DNA of 21,538 nucleotides from a virus (taxonomy: Duplodnaviria > Heunggongvirae > Uroviricota > Caudoviricetes): IMG/VR virus record IMGVR_UViG_2740892229_000015; one strand, given 5' to 3'. Position 1 is the stretch's first letter. Each line of letters opens with the position of its first letter. The notes beneath the pieces are model-generated. The model worked only from the letters and a program-made list of their open reading frames with translations, was not told the DNA's origin and ran no database searches. Both the position numbers and the translations under genes were made by a program. Shown piece by piece: positions 3,766-18,800 of the stretch.

Positions 3766-5157
3766 ATGACTGAGAACACGACTCCAACAGCAGACTTTAG
3801 TCCTAGTAAAAGATTTTTTGTAAGTATGCTAACTCGAGATATCGACTTAAACGATGCCATACTTGATCTGCTTGATAACTGCGTCGATGGGGCTTTACGT
3901 ACAATAAAAGACACAAAAAAAACTTCAAAACCATATGAAGGATTTTATGCGAAACTTACGATTAATAAAGATGTCTTTATTATAGAAGACAATTGCGGAG
4001 GTATCCCTAAAAGCTTCCGAGAATATGCTTTTAAAATGGGACGACCCCATCAAAAAGAAGAAGAAAATGAAGGCACCGTTGGCGTCTATGGTATTGGTAT
4101 GAAAAGAGCCATTTTTAAAATGGGTAGAGATTGCTCAATACAATCGAATAATCCCGATGGCGCATTCACTGTAGATATAACACCTGATTGGATCGATGGT
4201 GATGGTTGGAAAATACCGATGCACGAGAGTGACTATGATAACAAAAATCCAACAGGCACAACTATAGAGATAAAAAAACTCCATTCTAATGTGGCACAAA
4301 AATTTAATGAGAGCACATATCTTACTGATCTCTTTTTACAGATAAAACACTCATTGTCATTTATTATTCAAAAAGGATTTAAAATAGAATTAAATGGAGT
4401 TGTTGTTGAACATAATCCGATTAACATCATAACTGATCATTCTAAAATAGAACCATACATATATAAAGCTAAAATAGACGATGTTGATATCGATTTAGTT
4501 GTTGGCTTCTATAAAAATTTAGAAGATGACAATGATGATGTTTTAGAAAAAAGGAGTTCTGATGATGCTGGATGGACTGTCATTTGCAATGACCGCGTTG
4601 TTCTATATTGTGATAAGACACATCTCACAGGTTGGGGCTTTGCTAATGTACCAAGGTTTCATACCCAATTTATAGCAATTTCTGGGGTTGTTCGCTTTAC
4701 CAGTAAAAACCCAGAAAAATTACCAATAACAACAACGAAACGAGGTGTCGATCTTAGTTCTACATTGTACAATGATGTACGAAATAAAATGATTGAAGGG
4801 ATGATGCATTTTATTCGATTCACCAATCAGTGGAAAGGTGAGCATCTTGAAGAAGGGAAAAAATTACTTAAGTCAGCTCAGTCACATGAAGCTCAATCTT
4901 TATTTGAAATTACCCCACAATCAACTCCAGAAGATAAAAAAAATAACTGGTCCAACCCTAATAGAAACAAAAATGAGTGGCGATATACACCTAAGCTGCC
5001 TACCCCAGTAAAAAAAAGCTCTACTGTACGAATAATCTTCACCAGAGAGAAAGAAGATGTTAAAATTTTATCTAAATATTTCTTTGGACATGAAGATGCT
5101 AGCGCTTCTGATGTGGGGATGCAATGCTTTGATACGGTGATTGAAGAGGTGAAGTGA
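3766..5157 (+). CDS. GHKL-superfamily ATPase, MutL/MORC-like (463 aa)
   Basis: ORF track; Bergerat-fold motifs in order: N-box DLLDNCVDGA, G1 IEDNCGGI, G2 GVYGIGMKRA; GAGAG RBS; AT-rich codon usage unlike the flanking prophage genes. Confidence 0.85.
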   Translation: MTENTTPTADFSPSKRFFVSMLTRDIDLNDAILDLLDNCVDGALRTIKDTKKTSKPYEGFYAKLTINKDVFIIEDNCGGIPKSFREYAFKMGRPHQKEEENEGTVGVYGIGMKRAIFKMGRDCSIQSNNPDGAFTVDITPDWIDGDGWKIPMHESDYDNKNPTGTTIEIKKLHSNVAQKFNESTYLTDLFLQIKHSLSFIIQKGFKIELNGVVVEHNPINIITDHSKIEPYIYKAKIDDVDIDLVVGFYKNLEDDNDDVLEKRSSDDAGWTVICNDRVVLYCDKTHLTGWGFANVPRFHTQFIAISGVVRFTSKNPEKLPITTTKRGVDLSSTLYNDVRNKMIEGMMHFIRFTNQWKGEHLEEGKKLLKSAQSHEAQSLFEITPQSTPEDKKNNWSNPNRNKNEWRYTPKLPTPVKKSSTVRIIFTREKEDVKILSKYFFGHEDASASDVGMQCFDTVIEEVK

Positions 5158-6146
5158 TGTCTGGACAATACATTCCCTATCACTTAAGGCATAATAAGTC
5201 TATTGATAGAGAGATTTTTCTCGAAAGCCTAAACCTCTTAAGCAAAAGACTAAATATTCAAGAATATACATATATAGGTTTTGGTGGTCCGATGCTTGAA
5301 GATTTTAGAATCATGCATAATCGTATCGCTCTTTCTGATATGATTTCTCTCGAAGAACAAGAGTCTACTCACATCAGACAAAAATATAATTTGCCTTATA
5401 ATTGTATTGATTGTAAGCTAATATCAGCTCATGACTTTATTCTTGATTATAGTTTTTCTAAACCATCAATAACATGGTTAGACTATGCCTCCCCGAAAAA
5501 AATACAAACGGATCTAGATGATATACACTTACTAAGTACTAAAGTAAGCTCTTTTGATATTTTGAAGGTCACCTTCCCCATAAATCCTAGTTCTTATTAC
5601 CAACGTAGAGTTGGAGAAAGTTTAGATATTTTTAAAGAAGCTTTTATTAATTCATTAAAATCATTGCTTGGGAAAAAGTATCTTGATTTTAATCTTCAGA
5701 TATCAAATGCAGATCTTTCAGATCGTAAGATTAAAGCTCTTTTAATACGAATTATTACAAACGCTTTTAGATCAGCAATAGAACGTGGTCTTTCAGGACG
5801 TAAGGATAAGATTCAGTATTACCCATTATCCTTAAATCAATATAATGATGGCAGTCATACCATGTTGACAATATCAGGTTTTTTCTCCTCAGAACAAGAA
5901 TATATAGAGTTATCTAAGGCATGCGACCTTTCTAACTGGCAATTTTATTCAACAAATTGGGAAGACGTGCAAGAAATAGCAATACCAACACTAACAATTA
6001 AAGAAAAGATAAATTTAGATAGTAAACTGCCTGATAAAGAAGCATATCAGGCAGCCGCTGAAGAGTTCTCTTTAAACGAAAATGAACGGGATAACTATTA
6101 TAAATACTATAGGTTATACCCTAACTTCCAAAGAATTATGGTTTAA
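5157..6146 (+). CDS. Protein of unknown function (329 aa), translationally coupled to the GHKL ATPase; possible effector of the cassette
   Basis: ORF track 5154..6146; ATG at 5157 overlaps the ATPase TGA (TGATG); GAGGTG RBS; no motif I can recognise. Confidence 0.75.
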   Translation: MSGQYIPYHLRHNKSIDREIFLESLNLLSKRLNIQEYTYIGFGGPMLEDFRIMHNRIALSDMISLEEQESTHIRQKYNLPYNCIDCKLISAHDFILDYSFSKPSITWLDYASPKKIQTDLDDIHLLSTKVSSFDILKVTFPINPSSYYQRRVGESLDIFKEAFINSLKSLLGKKYLDFNLQISNADLSDRKIKALLIRIITNAFRSAIERGLSGRKDKIQYYPLSLNQYNDGSHTMLTISGFFSSEQEYIELSKACDLSNWQFYSTNWEDVQEIAIPTLTIKEKINLDSKLPDKEAYQAAAEEFSLNENERDNYYKYYRLYPNFQRIMV

Positions 6147-7265
6147 ATATTCGGGCTGTACTCTTTTATTTAATAAATTGTACAGCCCCTTTAATATATA
6201 TTCAGCAACTATTGGTGACACGCTATTTCCTATTTGTCTGAAACTATGCCATTTAGTTACATGAAAGCGAAACCAATCAGGGAAGCCTTGTAATCTAGCA
6301 GCTTCTCTTGGTGTAATCACTCTTGGATGATAAGGGTGGATCGGCCTGACGGCTTGAAAGCTTCCTTTATCTCTAGCGGTTCCCGCCCTTAAAGTCGGGC
6401 AAAAACCATTTGGATCTAATCTTGTAGATCTTGAAATTTTATCAGTTTCCCCAAAAGATAAGGAAGCATAACGCTCTTGGACGATTTTGCTATGTAATGT
6501 TCCGGTACATCCAGATATGATATTATTTTTTAACTTAGCGATCGATTCTGTATCACCAACATTCCGAGGGATCTGCCCCCATAATTTTTCATAAAATCCC
6601 CCTTTTCGATCTTTTTTAATTGTTCGCCAACTCTCAGAGTCTGATTGCCAATTGGCATCGATAATATCTGGTAATCCATACAAAGCATCTTTTACAGTAA
6701 CCGGATCAATCATTTTAGGCATAAATACTTCATCTGAAATATCAAGCTTCAATGATTTTTTTACACCGATAAAAAAATATCTAGTTCGAATAGTTGGAGC
6801 ACCATAATCAGATGCTTTTACCTTGATGGGATCAAGAATATCATAATCACCGCTAACCAAATTAAATGCTTTATTTCTAATGCCAGAATATTTCTCTTGC
6901 ATAATACCTGGAACATTTTCTGCCAAAAAGAATAATGGCTGTAATTCTGATACTAAACGGTAGAAATGCATGTAAAGCTGATTCCTGCTATCATCAGGAT
7001 TCCCCTTGCCTATTGAACTAAATCCTTGGCACGGAGGACCGCCAATAATACCATCTATGGGCATATCGTTTTTAAAAAAACCCTTAATTATTTCTGCATT
7101 TAGTAAAGAAACATCTTCTTGGACGTGCAAACTTCTTGGAAAATTAATTGCGTGAGTATTAATAGCATGTTGATCAATTTCAACTGCCATTTTAACATCA
7201 AATCCAGCACGTGCAGCACCAAGACTTAGACCTCCAACGCCAGAAAACAAATCTATTACATTCAT
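6114..7265 (-). CDS. DNA (cytosine-5)-methyltransferase (383 aa)
   Basis: ORF track; canonical C5-MTase motifs: I FSGVGG, IV GPPCQGFS (catalytic Cys), VI ENV, X QIGNSVSP; 3' end overlaps the convergent 329-aa gene by 33 bp. Confidence 0.9.
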   Translation of the reverse strand: MNVIDLFSGVGGLSLGAARAGFDVKMAVEIDQHAINTHAINFPRSLHVQEDVSLLNAEIIKGFFKNDMPIDGIIGGPPCQGFSSIGKGNPDDSRNQLYMHFYRLVSELQPLFFLAENVPGIMQEKYSGIRNKAFNLVSGDYDILDPIKVKASDYGAPTIRTRYFFIGVKKSLKLDISDEVFMPKMIDPVTVKDALYGLPDIIDANWQSDSESWRTIKKDRKGGFYEKLWGQIPRNVGDTESIAKLKNNIISGCTGTLHSKIVQERYASLSFGETDKISRSTRLDPNGFCPTLRAGTARDKGSFQAVRPIHPYHPRVITPREAARLQGFPDWFRFHVTKWHSFRQIGNSVSPIVAEYILKGLYNLLNKRVQPEYLNHNSLEVRV

Positions 7266-7517: not shown

Positions 7518-7622
7518 GGGTTTTTCTCTATCTGCCTTTGGTGTTCATGCCCAAGGCAGATAGCCTCAAGCACCCGCAGCAATTCTACTTAACTATCCTT
7601 TTCCCGCAAATCGTTTTTATCC
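7518..7622. repeat. Copy 1 of a ~105-bp conserved element (imperfect palindrome atctgcctttgg...ccaaggcagat plus shared core agcctcaagcacccgcagcaattctacttaact); copy 2 at 8438-8543
   Basis: Direct comparison of the two loci. Confidence 0.6.
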
Positions 7623-7700
7623 CCAGCGGCAAATCGAATACACAACCAGCGCCACCGCCATCGCAATTCCTACCGTTGTGAATGCTTCAGGCCAGGTCAT
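7617..7700 (-). CDS. Small hydrophobic peptide, 27 aa (MTWPEAFTTVGIAMAVALVVYSICRWG)
   Basis: Hand translation; ATG overlaps the TGA of the upstream ORF (ATGA); paralogue of the peptide at 8713-8796. Confidence 0.4.
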   Translation of the reverse strand: MTWPEAFTTVGIAMAVALVVYSICRWG

Positions 7701-8120
7701 CGTGAAACATCCTCCACGCTTATAAGTCCGCTTCGCTCCAGGTAGTCCATCACTTTATCCGGCAATTTGCAGCCCGGTTTCGCTTTCTTCAGTTGACTAA
7801 CCAATTGTTTAACCAGCATTGTCAATTCGCGAACTTGTTTCCCGGGCTCCCCTTTGCCCTGAAGCAGGGCAGCGCGGCAAGCGTTCCATCCCTCAGCATA
7901 TGTTTCAGTTACACCATCGAGATGGCATGTAAGCAAATCCATTTCTTCCGGCACTACGGGCGCTGGAAAAACGGCATAGGGTGGCGTCCATTTTGGCGCT
8001 TTATCTCCAGCCGAACGCTGCTACCAGTCATCCGGTTTGTATTCATAAAAATCACCAACTGGCTCTGCTTCCAGCGATGCCAGCGCAATCCGTGCCAGTT
8101 CCATTTGTTCACCACGGGTA
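7697..8120 (-). pseudogene. Paralogue of the 289-aa prophage protein at 8793-9662, interrupted by an in-frame TAG (8021-8023) and truncated by the contig end; the downstream 85-aa segment is in the ORF track
   Basis: 7981-8120 is nearly identical to 9537-9620; hand translation gives ...EAEPVGDFYEYKPDDW-stop-QRSAGDK...VPEEMDLL. Confidence 0.35.
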
Positions 8121-8171
8121 NNNNNNNNNNTTCATCAGAGGTGGCGAGGGATTTCTCCCCCGCCGGGGCTC

Positions 8172-8327
8172 TTACTCCTCAGGTTCGTAAGCTGTGAAGA
8201 CAGCGACCTCCGTCTGGCCGGTTCGGACTCGTACCTCGCAGAGGTCTTTCCTCGTTACCAGTGCCGTCACTATGACGGTTAAACAGATGACGATCAGGGC
8301 GATTAACATCGCCTTTTGCTGCTTCAT
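8172..8327 (-). CDS. hok: Hok/Gef-family type I toxin (51 aa, MKQQKAMLIALIVICLTVIVTALVTRKDLCEVRVRTGQTEVAVFTAYEPEE), HokD/RelF-like
   Basis: ORF track 8172..8384; internal ATG with AGGAGAAG RBS; single TM helix plus conserved C-terminal Cys, matching the Hok family as I recall it. Confidence 0.8.
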   Translation of the reverse strand: MKQQKAMLIALIVICLTVIVTALVTRKDLCEVRVRTGQTEVAVFTAYEPEE

Positions 8328-8437
8328 AGCCTGCTTCTCCTTGCCTTTCGGCACGTAAGAGGCTAACCTACGTTTGTGAAGCATAGATTGGGCCTCAGAT
8401 TAATGTTAAGCGTCTTGCAGGACGCGTAATGTTAACT

Positions 8438-8543
8438 GGGGCTTTTCTCTGTCTGCCTTACGGTGGCATGCCCGAGGCAGACAGCCTCAAGCACCCGCAG
8501 CAATTCTACTTAACTCTCGCTTTACCGCAAACCGTTTTTACCC
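8438..8543. repeat. Copy 2 of the conserved ~105-bp element (palindrome ctgtctgcc...ggcagacag), here about 110 bp upstream of hok on the hok-coding strand
   Basis: Direct comparison with 7518-7622. Confidence 0.6.
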
Positions 8544-8572
8544 GATATGGGAATTCCCATATCGTAATGAAT

Positions 8573-8677
8573 TCAGTTCCCTAGTCGATCCATCAAAAAC
8601 ACAACCAGGCAGTAAACGCCCACAACAGCAACAACAGCCAGCGCACCTTCCATTGCCAGTGATATATCATCCGACAT
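8573..8677 (-). CDS. Small hydrophobic peptide, 34 aa (MSDDISLAMEGALAVVAVVGVYCLVVFLMDRLGN)
   Basis: Hand translation; strong AGGAGGG RBS. Confidence 0.4.
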   Translation of the reverse strand: MSDDISLAMEGALAVVAVVGVYCLVVFLMDRLGN

Positions 8678-8712
8678 ATTCCCTCCTTTGGTGTTAATCC
8701 CGGCGAACGTTT

Positions 8713-8796
8713 TTACCCCCACCGACAAATAACATATACTAAAAAAGCGATAGCCATAGCAACGCCTGTAATTGCAAATGCTTCAGGCCAGTTCAT
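8713..8796 (-). CDS. Small hydrophobic peptide, 27 aa (MNWPEAFAITGVAMAIAFLVYVICRWG)
   Basis: Hand translation; ATG overlaps the TGA of the upstream 289-aa gene (ATGA); paralogue of 7617-7700. Confidence 0.45.
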   Translation of the reverse strand: MNWPEAFAITGVAMAIAFLVYVICRWG

Positions 8797-9662
8797 TGGC
8801 GCACCTCCTGCGGCGGTTCTGGTAGCGGCATCCAGTGTGACGGTTTCCACGACGCACCAGGAATTATCCACCCATCATTAGCGTCAGGATGACCCGGGAT
8901 GTAAGTCGCCCATTTCATTCGCCAGTCACCTTTCCTGTCAAACTCCACGGCAACAAGAACGGCTGTTTTGGTATCCGGCATTCGCTCACTACAGCTTATC
9001 CAACTATCCGGAGTTACCGGATAGTTGCCCGATAGTGCATTCTGCTCCAGTGATGCTTTTACAAACCACGCTGCCTGAACTATAACGCCATGAATCCAGC
9101 GCAAATCAGCATCGCGATCTTTCTTTTTCATCTTTTCGCCACTTAAGGCCTTGCTTATGTGGCTGCGTACCAGGTCTTCATGTAATTCCTTCGCCTCCTC
9201 AATGGTGAAACCACCAGGCAGAAGAGCCGGAGTTACCGGAGAGCTGGTTGACGCTTCCGGGATTTTCCGAAAATTATTGGTTGACGAATCTTTATTTTCC
9301 CGAAAGTTTCCGGACTGAAGCATGGCTTCGCGGCAATCGTTCCAGCCTGTAGCGTATGCAGCCGCTTTGCTGCTGCCTTCAACTGGCGCATCCTGCCAAT
9401 ACATTTCTTCCGGCACTATCGGCGCTGGAGGGGCGGCAAATAGATATCCGCCAAAGTCAGGAAGCTCTCTAATGGCCTGTACGAATTTTTGTTTGCCTAC
9501 GTCAACCCCTAATGGGTAATGAGCTATAATCTTTGCCACCGGCTCTGCTTCCAGCGATGCCAGCGCAATCCGTGCCAGTTCCATTTGTTCACCACGGGTA
9601 AGCCCGTTTTCAACCGGATTTTTAATGAACAATTCAATACGTTCTTTGGTAATAGTGGTCAT
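8793..9662 (-). CDS. Prophage early-region protein with a C-terminal DUF551-like domain (289 aa)
   Basis: ORF track; AAGGAG RBS; C-terminal W..CSERMPD...W..SHWMPLPEPP motif typical of phage DUF551 proteins (from memory). Confidence 0.75.
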   Translation of the reverse strand: MTTITKERIELFIKNPVENGLTRGEQMELARIALASLEAEPVAKIIAHYPLGVDVGKQKFVQAIRELPDFGGYLFAAPPAPIVPEEMYWQDAPVEGSSKAAAYATGWNDCREAMLQSGNFRENKDSSTNNFRKIPEASTSSPVTPALLPGGFTIEEAKELHEDLVRSHISKALSGEKMKKKDRDADLRWIHGVIVQAAWFVKASLEQNALSGNYPVTPDSWISCSERMPDTKTAVLVAVEFDRKGDWRMKWATYIPGHPDANDGWIIPGASWKPSHWMPLPEPPQEVRQ

Positions 9663-12963: not shown

Positions 12964-13670
12964 GAACCGCCCCGGAAATCCTGGAGACTAAACTCCCTGA
13001 GAAAGAGGTAAACAGGATGACTAAAAATACTCGTTTTTCCCCCGAAGTCCGTCAGCGGGCGATTCGTATGGTTCTGGAAAGTCAGGATGAATATGACTCA
13101 CAGTGGGCGGCAATTTGTTCCATTGCCCCAAAGATTGGCTGTACGCCGGAGACTCTGCGTGTCTGGGTTCGCCAGCATGAGCGGGATACCGGGAGTGGTG
13201 ATGGTGGACTCACCACCGCTGAACGTCAGCGTCTGAAAGAGCTGGAACGTGAAAATCGTGAACTGCGCCGCAGTAACGATATCCTTCGCCAGGCTTCCGC
13301 TTATTTTGCGAAGGCGGAGTTCGACCGCCTCTGGAAAAAATAATGCCTCTGCTGGATAAGCTGCGTGAGCAGTACGGGGTCGGACCGGTATGCAGTGAAC
13401 TGCATATTGCCCCGTCAACGTATTACCACTGTCAGCAACAGCGACATCATCCTGATAAACGCAGTGCCCGTGCGCAGCGCGATGACTGGCTGAAGAGAGA
13501 GATACAGCGCGTATACGATGAAAATCATCAGGTATACGGTGTGCGTAAAGTCTGGCGCCAGTTGTTACGCGAAGGTATCAGGGTGGCCAGATGTACAGTG
13601 GCGCGCCTCATGGCGGTTATGGGACTTGCCGGTGCTCTCCGGGGTAAAAAGGTCCGTACTACCGTCAGCC
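12964..13670 (+). mobile_element. IS3-family insertion sequence, left part only (IRL, orfA, first ~110 codons of orfB); homology to the other copy ends at ~13670
   Basis: Terminal repeat gaaccgccccgg at the contig start; orfA/orfB in -1 frame arrangement; transposase resembles IS629/IS3411-type as I recall. Confidence 0.8.
13017..13343 (+). CDS. IS3-family transposase OrfA (HTH, 108 aa)
   Basis: ORF track (its N-terminal residues spanning the N run are artefactual); GAGG RBS; leucine-zipper-like C-terminus. Confidence 0.9.
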
Positions 13671-13690
13671 GATTTACGGGCCGTAAGTAA
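13343..13690 (+). pseudogene. IS3-family transposase OrfB, truncated: diverges from the intact copy after ...KKVRTTVSR and stops 5 codons later
   Basis: Comparison with 13972-14854. Confidence 0.7.
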
Positions 13691-13971
13691 CGAAGTTGGA
13701 TGCAAATGTCAGATCGTGTGCGCCTGTTATGGCTCGGCTGGTAAGAGAGCCTTATAGGCGCATTTGAAAAAACTCCAGCTATACCGGAAGATATTTATTA
13801 TTAACAGGAGAGGTTTGCTTTTCTGTGTAGGTTTAGATTTTGTGTTTGCAGGGTAAACAAAACTGATTAACTCGTCATTTCGGTAACTGAAATAGTTTGC
13901 TGTTGGATTTGCCCCTATATTTCCAGACATCTGTTATCACTTAACCCATTACAAGCCCGCTNNNNNNNNNN

Positions 13972-14854
13972 ACTGCTGGATAAGCTGCGTGAGCAGTACG
14001 GGGTCGGACCGGTATGCAGCGAACTGCATATTGCCCCGTCAACGTATTACCATTGTCAGCAACAGCGACATCATCCGGATAAACGCAGTGCCCGTGCGCA
14101 GCACGATGACTGGCTGAAGAAAGAGATACAGCGCGTATACGATGAAAATCACCAGGTATACGGTGTGCGTAAAGTCTGGCGTCAGTTGTTACGGGAAGGT
14201 ATCAGAGTGGCCAGATGCACTGTGGCACGTCTCATGGCAGTTATGGGACTTGCCGGTGTTCTCCGGGGTAAAAAGGTCCGCACTACCGTCAGCCGGAAAG
14301 CCGTTGCCGCATGCGACCGCGTAAACCGTCAGTTCGTGGCAGAACGTCCAGACCAGTTGTGGGTGGCTGATTTTACCTGGGTAAGCACATGGCAGGGCTT
14401 CGTTTATGTGGCGTTCATCATTGATGTGTTCGCCGGATACATCGTGGGATGGCAGGTCTCATCATCCATGGAAACAACATTCGTGCTGGATGCACTGGAG
14501 CAGGCGTTGTGGGCCCGTCGGCCGTCCGGCACAATCCATCACAGTGATAAAGGTTCTCAGTATGTATCGCTGGCCTACACGCAGCGGCTTAAGGAAGCCG
14601 GATTACTGGCATCAACAGGGAGTACTGGCGACTCGTATGACAACGCGATGGCTGAGAGCATCAATGGTCTTTACAAAGCGGAGGTAATACACCGTAAGAG
14701 CTGGAAAAACCGGACAGAAGTGGAACTGGCCACACTAACGTGGGTGGACTGGTATAACAATCGACGATTGCTGGAAAGGCTGGGCCATATTCCTCCGGCA
14801 GAAGCAGAAAAAGCTTATTATGCTTCCATCGGAAATAATGATCTGGCAGCCTGA
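13972..14854 (+). CDS. IS3-family transposase OrfB (DDE integrase core), 5' end lost in the N run
   Basis: ORF track 14165..14854 plus open frame back to the contig start. Confidence 0.85.
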
Positions 14855-15068: not shown

Positions 15069-15611
15069 TCAAATAAAACCAGCTGCCTTCCGGCGTTCGT
15101 ATTCCTGTTTCAGCCGCTCAATTGGCGTTGGCCCTTGCGGGTGTTTCGCCCCTTCCAGTTGTCGTCGCACTGGCGGAACACTCATCCCGTTACCAACATG
15201 CTTTGCCCATTTCGTCAGTTGCCGTTCCGCAAGTCGTTTTAACTCACCCTGCGTCATCTGGCGCTCAATCCCTCTGGTACGCATTTCGAGGCAGATGTGG
15301 TACAGCACAGGCTGTGGCCACGGGTATTTATCACTCCCGTCGTATCGCCAGGATTCATTGCGCCAGCGCCGGTACTCTTCCATCACTGCATCCACCGTAA
15401 GACCAAATGGATTTGCCCCACTCTCCGAAATCAGTGCAACAAACTCAGCCAGGTCCGGGGGCCACGTTTCACCCGCCCGGCAGCGGTCCATGCACTGACG
15501 GCAGACCAGCCGGATTTGCTGTTCAGTCATCGCGCCAATCTGGGCAATCCAGAGCTTCGAAGGTGCGGCCCCGTTCTTCTGTGTCCAGCGGTTCGAATAC
15601 ACCTCCCCCAT
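15069..15611 (-). CDS. Lambda P-like replication protein (helicase loader); start uncertain, longest ORF begins at 15731
   Basis: ORF track; collinear similarity to lambda P as I recall it (FLPSPGQFVAW vs TWPPDLAEFVAL, YPWKSNAHYW vs YPWPQPVLYH). Confidence 0.65.
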   Translation of the reverse strand: MGEVYSNRWTQKNGAAPSKLWIAQIGAMTEQQIRLVCRQCMDRCRAGETWPPDLAEFVALISESGANPFGLTVDAVMEEYRRWRNESWRYDGSDKYPWPQPVLYHICLEMRTRGIERQMTQGELKRLAERQLTKWAKHVGNGMSVPPVRRQLEGAKHPQGPTPIERLKQEYERRKAAGFI

Positions 15612-16172
15612 AAGCTCCCACAGCTTCCAGGCCGTTTCCGTTGCTGATAAATCCGTTGTCACGTTCCCACTGTTCGCGTGCTGCCCGGATTTCCTGAACT
15701 GCCCGTGATGCCGTGCCACCTGATGCTGCATGGCTTACCCCCTTGCTGACTGGTTTTACCTGTGCCCTGACGTGCTGCACGTGGCGGGCAAATTTCTGCT
15801 CCCACTGAACCTGCGTGAAAACCTTCCCCTCCGCCATCCAGTAATCCCGGAATGCGGCAAGCTCTGCAGGTGTAAATTCCGGCTCAGGCAGAGCCATACC
15901 CCACACTGCTGCCCGTTGTCGAAAATCCGACGACGGCTGCCAGACAGTAGTCATCGAAAATTTCCCGATCGGTTCGCTCAGGCCGTCCAGGTATTCAGGT
16001 TCGGCTGTCTGCAACGGCGCACCATGCGACTCACCGGTTGGAGCACTCTCGCGCATGCGCGCGTTATGTGTGGGGTTTAATTCTGTATCTGTATCTTTAT
16101 CTGTCGTGACTTGTCGTGACATGTGCGTGACATTTCGTGACGCGCCGTGACAATCGCCATTTTGTTCCCGCT
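15523..16172 (-). CDS. C-terminal part of an O-like replication initiator, truncated by the N run inside its iteron region
   Basis: ORF track 15523..16236 (the part beyond 16172 belongs to another piece); shares the iteron-encoded segment REQNGDCHGASRNVTHMSR with the O-like gene at 16277-17353. Confidence 0.6.
16081..16152. repeat. Origin-type iterons: tandem ~10-11-bp repeats containing CGTGAC, next to tatctgtatcttta repeats
   Basis: Read directly; same array as at 16885-16960. Confidence 0.6.
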
Positions 16173-18161: not shown

Positions 18162-18800
18162 ATGAGCAAGCAAACAATATCTGAACGCATAACCCAACGT
18201 ATGCATGCGCTAAACCTGAAAGGCAAAGACCTTGTCAATGCCACTGGCGCATCAAAAGGCTCCGTAAGTCAATGGATGAACGGTGGAGGAGCGCCGTCCT
18301 CGCGTTACATAAGTTCACTGGCAAAAATATTGAAAGTAAACGAAAATTGGCTTCTTAATGGAGGAGAGTTAAATACAGGTGATTCGCTTGATCTATCTTT
18401 ACCGCCGATAAAAACGGTTCCGCTACTATCACTTCAGCAGGCAGCAAGCTGGAGTGATTATATGAAAAATTCCTCAATAACCTCTTGTGTGCAGCTTGTC
18501 GGAGAAATCCCGGCCAATACCTTTGCAGTTGTTCTAGAGAGTGACAGTATGTCAACATCTGGTGGGGGAGTTTCCATCCCAAATGGTTCAACAGTTTTTG
18601 TTGATCCCAATCGAACCGTACAACCAGGAAATATTGTCCTTGCCTTACCCAAAGGGACCACAACACCTGTCATTCGTAAACTGGAGATAGAAGGGCCGGA
18701 TATTCTTTTAGTCCCCACGAATCCTCGCTACCCTTCAATTATGCTGGATGATCTATCTTGCATATTGGGCGTATGCTTTAAAATTCAACAAGATATTTAA
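18162..18800 (+). CDS. CI-like prophage repressor: N-terminal HTH plus C-terminal S24 (LexA-like) autopeptidase domain (212 aa)
   Basis: ORF track; HTH GASKGSVSQWMNG; C-terminal ESDSMS...VDPN...PGNIV...RKL collinear with the lambda CI C-terminal domain. Confidence 0.8.
   Translation: MSKQTISERITQRMHALNLKGKDLVNATGASKGSVSQWMNGGGAPSSRYISSLAKILKVNENWLLNGGELNTGDSLDLSLPPIKTVPLLSLQQAASWSDYMKNSSITSCVQLVGEIPANTFAVVLESDSMSTSGGGVSIPNGSTVFVDPNRTVQPGNIVLALPKGTTTPVIRKLEIEGPDILLVPTNPRYPSIMLDDLSCILGVCFKIQQDI

Follow-up and report, generated by a model that had tools for sequence, protein, structure and literature searches.

Three very short open reading frames (ORFs) in one stretch of phage DNA raise the question of whether genes of this size are real and, if so, what their products might do. 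The stretch, referred to below as the window, comprises 21,538 nucleotides (nt) of IMG/VR virus record IMGVR_UViG_2740892229_000015 (Caudoviricetes) and was analysed over its full length. An original prediction had placed three hydrophobic, single-helix peptides in it, and all three ORFs are indeed present, on the minus strand: pepA1 at 7617-7700 (27 amino acids (aa), MTWPEAFTTVGIAMAVALVVYSICRWG), pepA2 at 8713-8796 (27 aa, MNWPEAFAITGVAMAIAFLVYVICRWG) and pepB at 8573-8677 (34 aa, MSDDISLAMEGALAVVAVVGVYCLVVFLMDRLGN). Each carries the predicted single helix as one hydrophobic segment of 17-19 residues, long enough to span the bilayer, with a mean Kyte-Doolittle hydropathy of 2.1-2.5 over residues 6-24 of the pepA peptides and of 2.9 over residues 13-29 of pepB. 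All three tiny genes are very probably real: pepA, our name for pepA1, pepA2 and their relatives (the WPEAF family), is a new, widespread and previously unnamed family within the known class of phage single-helix microproteins, and pepB is already on record.

The two pepA copies are paralogous, as had been proposed. They share 18 of 27 residues, both ends included, and their BLOSUM62 local score of 111 compares with 19.9 ± 4.4 in 5000 composition-preserving shuffles, none of which reached it; within the window they are the only ORFs with a WP[EDT]AF motif. Both start on an ATGA that overlaps the stop codon of the gene upstream, at 7697-7700 for pepA1, where the TGA (7697-7699) ends an ORF at 7697-7954, and at 8793-8796 for pepA2, where the TGA (8793-8795) ends the DUF551 gene at 8793-9662. 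Besides these peptides, the window holds only two strongly hydrophobic mini-ORFs with such stop/start overlaps, both spurious. A Shine-Dalgarno sequence precedes each ATG on the minus strand: GGAGGA (7710-7715) lies 9 nt before the pepA1 start, within the 3′ end of the upstream gene (…SVEDVSR, stop), and AGGAGGTG (8802-8809) lies 5 nt before that of pepA2, within the last codons of DUF551 (…PQEVRQ, stop). The pepA2 type of junction is the commonest among 195 pepA copies, and the pepA1 type recurs in dozens of loci. Translational coupling, which had been predicted for the peptides, thus stands for pepA1 and pepA2 as far as the overlaps go; pepB, which starts 35 nt past the pepA2 stop, is not coupled by an overlap. 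Because the ATG overlaps the upstream stop and the Shine-Dalgarno is embedded in the last upstream codons, pepA would be made whenever its host operon is translated. Both start regions are less structured than shuffled controls (z +1.39 for pepA1 and +1.32 for pepA2), so ribosomes may either re-initiate there after termination or start directly; for pepA2, the accessible start (z +1.3) and the strong Shine-Dalgarno AGGAGGTG suggest that translation independent of the upstream gene is also possible. A comparison of synonymous-site fixation across the Shine-Dalgarno in the DUF551 C-terminus had only two distinct codon quintets to draw on.

Conservation of the WPEAF and CRWG ends had been taken to imply coding, and this argument gains from a larger sample, since frame, start and stop are kept across hundreds of WPEAF copies and in diverged DNA. 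An earlier sample of codon differences had ranked loci by protein similarity and was therefore biased; it was replaced by a DNA-anchored scan of IMG/VR in which only codons 1-7 were fixed, so that loci were not picked by protein similarity. In the DNA-anchored sample, 47 of 49 distinct nucleotide-similar alleles keep the exact 27 codons plus stop, the two exceptions being one in-frame 6-nt deletion and one stop two codons early. Substitutions in the unanchored codons 8-27 are biased towards synonymous ones in the peptide frame, where the ratio of non-synonymous to synonymous changes (pN/pS) is 0.43, against 0.74, 1.81, 0.90 and 2.07 in four other frames. The identical pepA1 peptide is encoded by 24 distinct DNA alleles, and 9 of 10 phage loci derived by tblastn are intact. 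We consider it highly likely that pepA is a real coding gene.

Several points weigh against this conclusion. Copies of pepA are sometimes decayed, as in Shigella phage POCJ13, where TGG has become TAG at codon 3; a search for proteomic data on pepA found none. A pN/pS of 0.43 reflects merely moderate constraint, and the antisense frame that shares the wobble position gives 0.44 and is open in 163 of 177 copies; this frame is rejected only because the window contains no antisense ORF of at least 20 aa in it that starts with ATG, GTG or TTG. The invariance of WPEAF was in part imposed by the search patterns, and half of the E. coli pepA copies abut the hok promoter region, so that the conservation of their 3′ ends could be partly non-coding. 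In POCJ13 itself (NC_025434.1, about 58101-58181), two hypothetical coding sequences (CDS) are annotated on the strand opposite to the inactivated pepA and are probably spurious.

Such points lead to the possibility that pepA is an untranslated but conserved DNA or RNA element, either a recombination boundary or an upstream part of the hok promoter or leader. Its place is exactly at mosaic junctions, where both the genes upstream and the DNA downstream vary, its first 21 nt are highly conserved as DNA in enteric copies, a hok leader follows about 20 nt after the stop in 57 loci, and the equal pN/pS of the wobble-sharing antisense frame would fit as well. Against such an element speaks the behaviour of the motif where nucleotide similarity has gone. 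We scanned for distant members with a pattern that uses CCS and GCS codons and excludes E. coli-type alleles, and used as a control the reversed motif M-x-F-A-E/D-P-W, which has the same composition. The 63 distinct sites found with the pattern included 21 ORFs of 20-36 aa; 14 of the 63 were short and hydrophobic and 13 overlapped an upstream stop (examples of members are MNWPEAFVLAVHFVAVAAMVIFASRRNP, MSWPDAFCAVGVTACFAWMVVRGMREVRKP and MGWPEAFCIVGCVWAVCWLFK). The 46 control sites included two ORFs of 20-36 aa, and none was short and hydrophobic or overlapped a stop. Motif and helix are thus kept with different codons on viral contigs that span 40-66% GC, and the ATG, Shine-Dalgarno and stop position are all maintained. 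In addition, 90 pepA copies have no hok nearby, no Rfam RNA family matches at pepA and the start regions are unstructured, all of which makes an untranslated element quite improbable relative to a peptide-coding gene.

Across its members the family can be described as M-x-W-P-E/D-A-F, one hydrophobic helix and usually a basic tail, with lengths of 22-36 aa and of 27 aa in the E. coli clade. Among 30 members, the positions left free by the search retain preferences of their own: V10 in 20, G11 in 19, A13 in 17, A, C or S at position 15 in all 30, and A17 in 22. Lysine or arginine occurs after residue 18 in 26 of the 30 and within residues 1-12 in only 2, in agreement with the positive-inside rule; position 5 is acidic in 29, which is partly imposed by the search pattern. 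An acidic N-tail and a basic C-tail would yield a single-span inner-membrane peptide with its N-terminus out and its C-terminus in, and from these sequence features we regard a membrane location with this topology as likely. Other proteins offer a parallel. The Pf3 coat protein and other YidC-inserted, N-out single-span proteins have an acidic N-tail, one helix and basic residues after it, with no signal peptide, and the acidic-N/basic-C charge pattern drives translocation of the N-tail. The pepA peptides share the charge pattern of the Pf3 coat protein, although they are about half its size, unrelated in sequence and not known as virion components.

pepA proved to be widespread. Of 5426 complete E. 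coli genomes, 1632 contain DNA similar to pepA1; these amount to 3106 places (163 of them on plasmids), with up to seven per genome. A tblastn search recovered pepA in 99 phage records at 52-88% identity, among them 933W, where it lies between L0139 and sokW/hokW, VT2-Sakai, BP-4795, Vequintavirinae, the P1-like SJ46 and Klebsiella phages, and 501 relatives were confirmed in IMG/VR. In the protein collection, the exact pepA1 peptide occurs on 79 contigs and the exact pepA2 peptide forms a singleton cluster. A clustering tie between pepA1 and 121-aa Shigella ‘DUF551’ proteins (cluster 1) was discarded as an artefact, the peptide not being present in those proteins. An E. coli-type copy, with a peptide identical to that of pepA1 and followed by hok/sok, was also seen in the Actinobacillus phage vB_Apl-pPE4 (PP818812.1, 12206-14086; deposited as infecting A. 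pleuropneumoniae), which suggests either a very recent transfer or a misattributed host or sample.

This distribution went largely unrecorded. The prediction that genes of this kind are easily missed is right for pepA: it has no CDS call in the three RefSeq records annotated by the Prokaryotic Genome Annotation Pipeline (PGAP) and the ten phage records inspected, and its 52-aa extended ORF matches only 6 proteins among 5.8 billion. No Pfam-A, NCBIfam, PHROGs v4 or PADLOC model matches pepA above threshold (22 members were scanned for PHROGs); the best matches below it were PTR2 (17.9 bits against 27), KdpF (14.7 against 26.85) and phrog_38566 (E 0.0065), and each weak PHROG was matched by just one of the 22 members. 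The string ‘WPEAF’ was not found in the relevant full-text literature or in the supplements of four small-protein catalogues, some of which were covered in part, and the family may earlier have been listed elsewhere as an unnamed cluster. Common gene callers such as Prodigal apply a minimum gene length of 90 nt, below which the 84-nt pepA falls. Neither tblastn nor motif scans detected a relative of pepA or pepB in the K-12 prophages DLP12, e14, Rac and Qin, and since these four lambdoid cryptic prophages of K-12 lack pepA, it was missed by small-protein screens centred on that strain.

The overlap with an upstream stop is close to a family trait: 193 of 195 pepA-like ORFs start on the stop of an upstream ORF, 170 by ATGA and 22 by T(A/G)ATG. 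At least 14 unrelated clusters of upstream partners, with differing PHROGs, are represented, including a DUF551/phrog_660 mosaic, the 933W L0139 type, phrog_2814, phrog_2960, phrog_492 and a protein resembling single-stranded DNA-binding protein. The pepA ORF behaves as a transferable module, attached to the 3′ ends of many accessory genes of the early, nin or ea regions that have no relation to one another. In the window, the partner of pepA2 is a 289-aa DUF551 protein (8793-9662, minus strand; Pfam PF04448, E 9.8e-21; phrog_60). That of pepA1 (7697-7954, minus strand) is the C-terminal part of a phrog_660-type accessory gene, which is broken by an in-frame amber codon (TAG, 8021-8023, minus strand) and by a run of Ns at 8121-8130; the amber codon splits it into a 27-aa N-terminal and an 85-aa C-terminal piece, and pepA1 is still intact. 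In strain E2863 the two halves are annotated as separate CDS with the same ATGA junction.

An arrangement of this sort could also mean that pepA is no peptide of its own: ribosomes shifting by −1 would extend a fraction of the upstream protein with a C-terminal membrane anchor. Relative to the upstream gene, pepA is read in frame −1, this frame stays open over the 25 codons ahead of pepA2 (52-aa ORF, 8713-8871), and one partial database protein named ‘DUF551’ (P0012) reads through it. By inspection, however, the 40 nt upstream of the overlap contain no X-XXY-YYZ slippery heptamer; the peptide has its own conserved ATG and Shine-Dalgarno; only 6 longer proteins among the 5.8 billion contain the sequence; and upstream partners with no relation to one another leave no shared frameshift site to be conserved. 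We rejected the frameshift anchor on account of the absent slippery site and the peptide’s own start signals, and regard it as the least probable of the explanations considered, a separately initiated peptide being much preferred.

Downstream of pepA, the recurrent neighbour is the type I toxin-antitoxin locus hok/sok. In the window, the sok antisense RNA/hok mRNA leader (Rfam RF01794; 117.5 bits, E 1.4e-26) occupies 8322-8496 on the minus strand, next to the peptide genes, and the mok/hok frames lie at 8172-8384 on the same strand, with a 51-aa Hok toxin CDS at 8172-8327 (Pfam HOK_GEF 1.5e-22, phrog_251). Of 190 pepA copies with enough downstream sequence, 99 have a hok/sok leader within 300 nt, including 933W hokW and both copies in the window. 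The leader follows the pepA stop directly, about 20 nt on, in 57 copies, and is preceded by pepB in 17, by a terminator-like hairpin in 16 and by other spacers in 8; 90 copies have no hok within 400 nt downstream. Past the pepA1 stop lies a truncated copy of the hok/sok leader (7518-7622, minus strand; ~105 nt, about 88% identical to 8438-8543), which keeps a −10-like hexamer, TAGAAT, at 7582-7587. The frequency of the association invites the idea that pepA is functionally tied to hok/sok, by modulating the insertion or activity of Hok or through a control of hok-promoter read-through by pepA translation. We hold this to be very improbable, given that hok is missing from 90 copies and from all distant members, that a terminator-like hairpin or pepB separates the two genes in 16 and 17 loci, and that pepA1 in the window is intact although its hok gene is deleted; the association is explicable by the inheritance of one successful mosaic joint.

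pepB tells a separate story. The strong ribosome-binding site ascribed to the third ORF is there, as the Shine-Dalgarno sequence AAGGAGGG (8681-8688, minus strand) 3 nt before the ATG, and it is kept in all six pepB alleles seen. The same ORF is a PGAP CDS (RefSeq WP_001278454.1) and has 98.1% DNA identity to ECs_5710 of strain Sakai, so that, for pepB, the expectation of a missed gene fails. It is present in 674 of 5426 complete E. coli genomes, was not found by tblastn and blastn in 50,697 deposited phage records, and yielded only close relatives in an exhaustive HMMER search of 1.84 billion representatives; among its six alleles the variable sites number 4, 0 and 7 at codon positions 1, 2 and 3. 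We take pepB for a gene apart from pepA, young in evolutionary terms, restricted to Escherichia and already annotated, with a single-helix peptide as its product. The original prediction had gathered the three peptides into one family, and this part is not established, the similarity between pepA and pepB being marginal (shuffle p 0.03-0.04): their local protein score is 27 against 19 ± 3.8 in shuffles (p 0.04; LVVFLMDRLG in pepB, LVVYSICRWG in pepA), and under codon shuffling a DNA match of 17 nt, CTGGTTGTGT.TT.GAT, reaches p 0.027.

Ribosome profiling data are at hand for pepB, which lies inside XECs145 of E. coli O157:H7 Sakai, a novel small gene reported to be translated (Huecker et al. 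2017, PMC5597208). This enclosing ORF was covered by ribosomes, with reads per kilobase per million (RPKM) of 79 in the transcriptome and 346 in the translatome, a ribosomal coverage value (RCV) of 4.35 and a coverage of 0.99 in lysogeny broth; in brain heart infusion the translatome RPKM was 150, the RCV 1.14 and the coverage 0.84, and under cold or osmotic stress the ORF was nearly silent (PMC5597208). Its product was predicted to be an inner-membrane protein with one transmembrane helix (PMC5597208). XECs145 (ECs_5710, YP_009502606.1, WP_001278454.1) is pepB itself, situated in Sakai prophage Sp6 between a DUF551-type gene with pepA and mok/hok; the paper took the farthest upstream start, giving 54 aa, whereas the ATG preceded by the Shine-Dalgarno gives 34 aa, as PGAP now annotates. 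Since the survey took only intergenic ORFs of at least 30 aa (PMC5597208), the 27-aa pepA lay outside its search space. In the current RefSeq record of the Sp6 locus (NC_002695.2, 1548462-1553566) the locus tags run ECs_1518, ECs_5710 (pepB) and ECs_1520; ECs_1519 is gone, and an older annotation of Sakai may have called the pepA/pepB interval differently.

The position of pepB hints at how it arrived. It lies in a 164-nt cassette (8544-8707, minus strand) between two copies of an 11-nt direct repeat, GGGTAAAAACG, at 8533-8543 and 8708-8718, and the same repeat at 7612-7622 (GGATAAAAACG) forms the junction of the pepA1 stop with the hok leader. As the flanking repeat is the usual junction sequence, this suggests that pepB was inserted into, or recombined at, a pepA-stop/hok-leader junction. 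Two further observations concern the interval between pepA2 and pepB. Natural 74-aa read-through fusions of the two peptides exist in a few database entries (P0035, P0037), probably caused by indels where the pepA stop (TGGGGGTAAAAAC) has G5/A5 homopolymers, and may represent a two-helix hairpin peptide or sequencing errors. At the RNA level, the pepA2 stop, the spacer and the pepB start (8648-8737, minus strand) fold at −26.6 kcal/mol (z −2.9; 0 of 200 shuffles as stable) into one hairpin over the pepA2 stop codon and a second, AU-rich hairpin that holds the pepB AUG; this fold could couple pepB initiation to pepA2 termination, or serve as a processing or stability element.

What, then, might the peptides do? 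The original prediction had considered small membrane toxins, and type I-like toxins that depolarise the membrane and kill or arrest the host (the Hok, TisB and DinQ kind) do resemble pepA and pepB in being small, hydrophobic and single-helix. Furthermore, hok/sok follows directly downstream of about half of the pepA copies and of every pepB copy whose downstream sequence is long enough, and stripes of small residues along the helix could support oligomeric pores. Against a toxin stand, in the first place, the comparisons with known families: neither peptide matches a toxin family in Pfam, NCBIfam, PHROGs or PADLOC, and none of the three matches the HOK_GEF profile (PF01848, NCBIfam NF007279) at E up to 1, whereas the neighbouring hok scores 79.4 bits. 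At its gathering threshold, Rfam finds no antisense RNA on pepA or pepB, the only one detected being the sok that belongs to hok; a promoter scan gave plus-strand consensus matches at 8653-8680 and 8712-8740, at a density not far above that of shuffles (6 against 2.9 ± 1.8), and a novel antisense RNA outside Rfam is conceivable. The peptides also lack a transcription unit, a promoter and a long structured leader of their own, being attached to accessory genes of an ordinary kind. On a simple scale, their predicted insertion energy is +0.2 to −2.7 kcal/mol, compared with −4.7 for Hok. Finally, genomes tolerate up to seven copies of pepA, and the ORF around pepB, with its RCV of 4.35, ranks with those novel ORFs that growing Sakai cells translate better; because the pepB region is heavily covered by ribosomes in growing lysogens, strong toxicity of pepB is argued against.

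Hok/Gef (PF01848) can also be compared directly. The hokD-like gene at 8172-8327, with its sok (RF01794), encodes a small, hydrophobic, single-helix prophage peptide like those of pepA and pepB, is taken to be an inner-membrane peptide and adjoins pepA in about half of the E. coli loci. It differs, however, in showing no homology to them, in being 50-51 aa long and in having a periplasmic Cys-containing domain, its own promoter, the mok leader ORF and the sok antisense RNA, none of which is found in pepA or pepB. The flanking charges are opposite as well, at +2 (N) and −2 (C) in Hok and −1 (N) and +1 (C) in pepA. A toxin is, in our estimate, unlikely, and a pore-forming role is less likely for pepA than one as a modulator of a membrane protein.

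Regulators, the other role named in the original prediction, may still be what the peptides are. Better models may be the bacterial microproteins KdpF, MgtS, AcrZ, CydX and MgtU, which belong to the same size class, have a single helix and each bind a larger membrane protein; we used them as the model for pepA, and they differ from it in that they are encoded beside their partners, whereas pepA has no constant neighbour. In profile searches, MgtS, AcrZ, CydX and MgtU matched nothing on pepA or pepB. A stripe of small residues (G11, A13, A15, A17) along the pepA helix suggests helix-helix packing, and by analogy with other bacterial and phage microproteins the helix might, speculatively, associate with a host or phage membrane protein, with host takeover or superinfection exclusion as conceivable roles. 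Because pepA occurs in temperate prophages, phage-plasmids and Vequintavirinae alike, a role in infection generally, beyond lysogeny, is suggested. Our tentative proposal is that pepA is a modulator of a host or phage membrane protein or has an exclusion function. It has to be said against this that the function is pure inference, as no partner gene is conserved, no family or structure matches and no phenotype is on record. As a package, namely coding genes for membrane microproteins that are not toxins, the interpretation given here appears reasonably probable to us.

The wider setting is that of a lambdoid, Stx (Shiga toxin)-phage-like E. coli prophage, which reads from right to left in the window, with a cI-like repressor on the plus strand (18162-18800). 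On the minus strand the order is a YdaT-like gene, lambda-P (15069-15731), an IS3-type element, nin-region genes, DUF551, pepA2, pepB and sok/mok/hok, followed by the phrog_660-type gene, pepA1, a C5-methyltransferase cassette, DUF1367, antiterminator Q (1826-2500) and three tRNAs. This order puts the peptides between P and Q, that is, in the non-essential nin region. Mini-ORFs with 4-nt overlaps to their neighbours are also found between P and Q in DLP12, where the start of ylcG (46 aa) overlaps the rusA stop and the end of ylcH (33 aa) overlaps the ybcN start, although YlcG and YlcH have no sequence similarity to pepA. Two ALIL pseudoknot matches (13298-14038) mark the frameshift element of an insertion sequence (IS) of the IS3 family, inserted in the nin region. 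A homologue of the STnc100 small RNA and the three tRNA genes lie downstream of Q (235-407, 1227-1686), where Stx phages have the tRNA genes found ahead of stx.

Directly downstream of pepA1, an AT-rich cassette (3766-7265) takes the place of the remainder of the hok locus. It consists of a type II C5-cytosine methyltransferase (6114-7265, minus strand; PADLOC MTase_II 2e-98) and, convergent with it on the plus strand, a GHKL-type ATPase (HATPase_c_3, 3766-5157) and a Methyltransf_35 protein (5154-6146), and looks like a restriction- or defence-type island inserted in the nin region. The pepA1-to-dcm joint is also present in strain E2863, and the pepA2-pepB-hok module also in strain 2013C-4991 and Sakai prophage Sp6. 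The window contains ten runs of Ns (starting at 182, 416, 1395, 1486, 8121, 10784, 12954, 13962, 16173 and 18995), which look like masking because all are exactly 10 nt long and two are merely 81 bp apart; on the same grounds the idea that the run at 8121-8130 is a scaffold join was set aside. The junction across that run, from the 3′ flank of hok to the next gene, is contiguous in none of the 5426 complete E. coli genomes, and the adjacency of the pepA2-pepB-hok and pepA1 modules is for this reason open to doubt.

Nothing is overturned by these results, small hydrophobic ORFs being common in phages. Their import is rather that a gene of 84 nt, which about 30% of complete E. coli genomes carry, often in several copies and notably in Stx prophages, has escaped essentially all annotation, and annotators now have a signature to look for, namely M-x-W-P-E/D-A-F followed by a helix, in an ORF whose start overlaps the stop upstream. 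For experimentalists, pepA is a tractable candidate phage membrane microprotein, and for phage evolution it illustrates the modular appending of micro-ORFs to unrelated phage genes. A bolder reading, to which we give slightly less credence than to the modulator or exclusion role itself, is that WPEAF peptides are a broad new class of phage microproteins, extending far outside the phages of enterobacteria to viral contigs of 40-66% GC and found in temperate and virulent-type phages, whose conserved, periplasm-facing W-P-E/D-A-F docks on a conserved component of the host inner membrane or periplasm. If this were true, docking could block the entry of superinfecting DNA or re-tune a transporter or sensor during infection, and pepA would be an 84-nt ‘plug-in’, portable enough for recombination to attach it to the end of any early gene.

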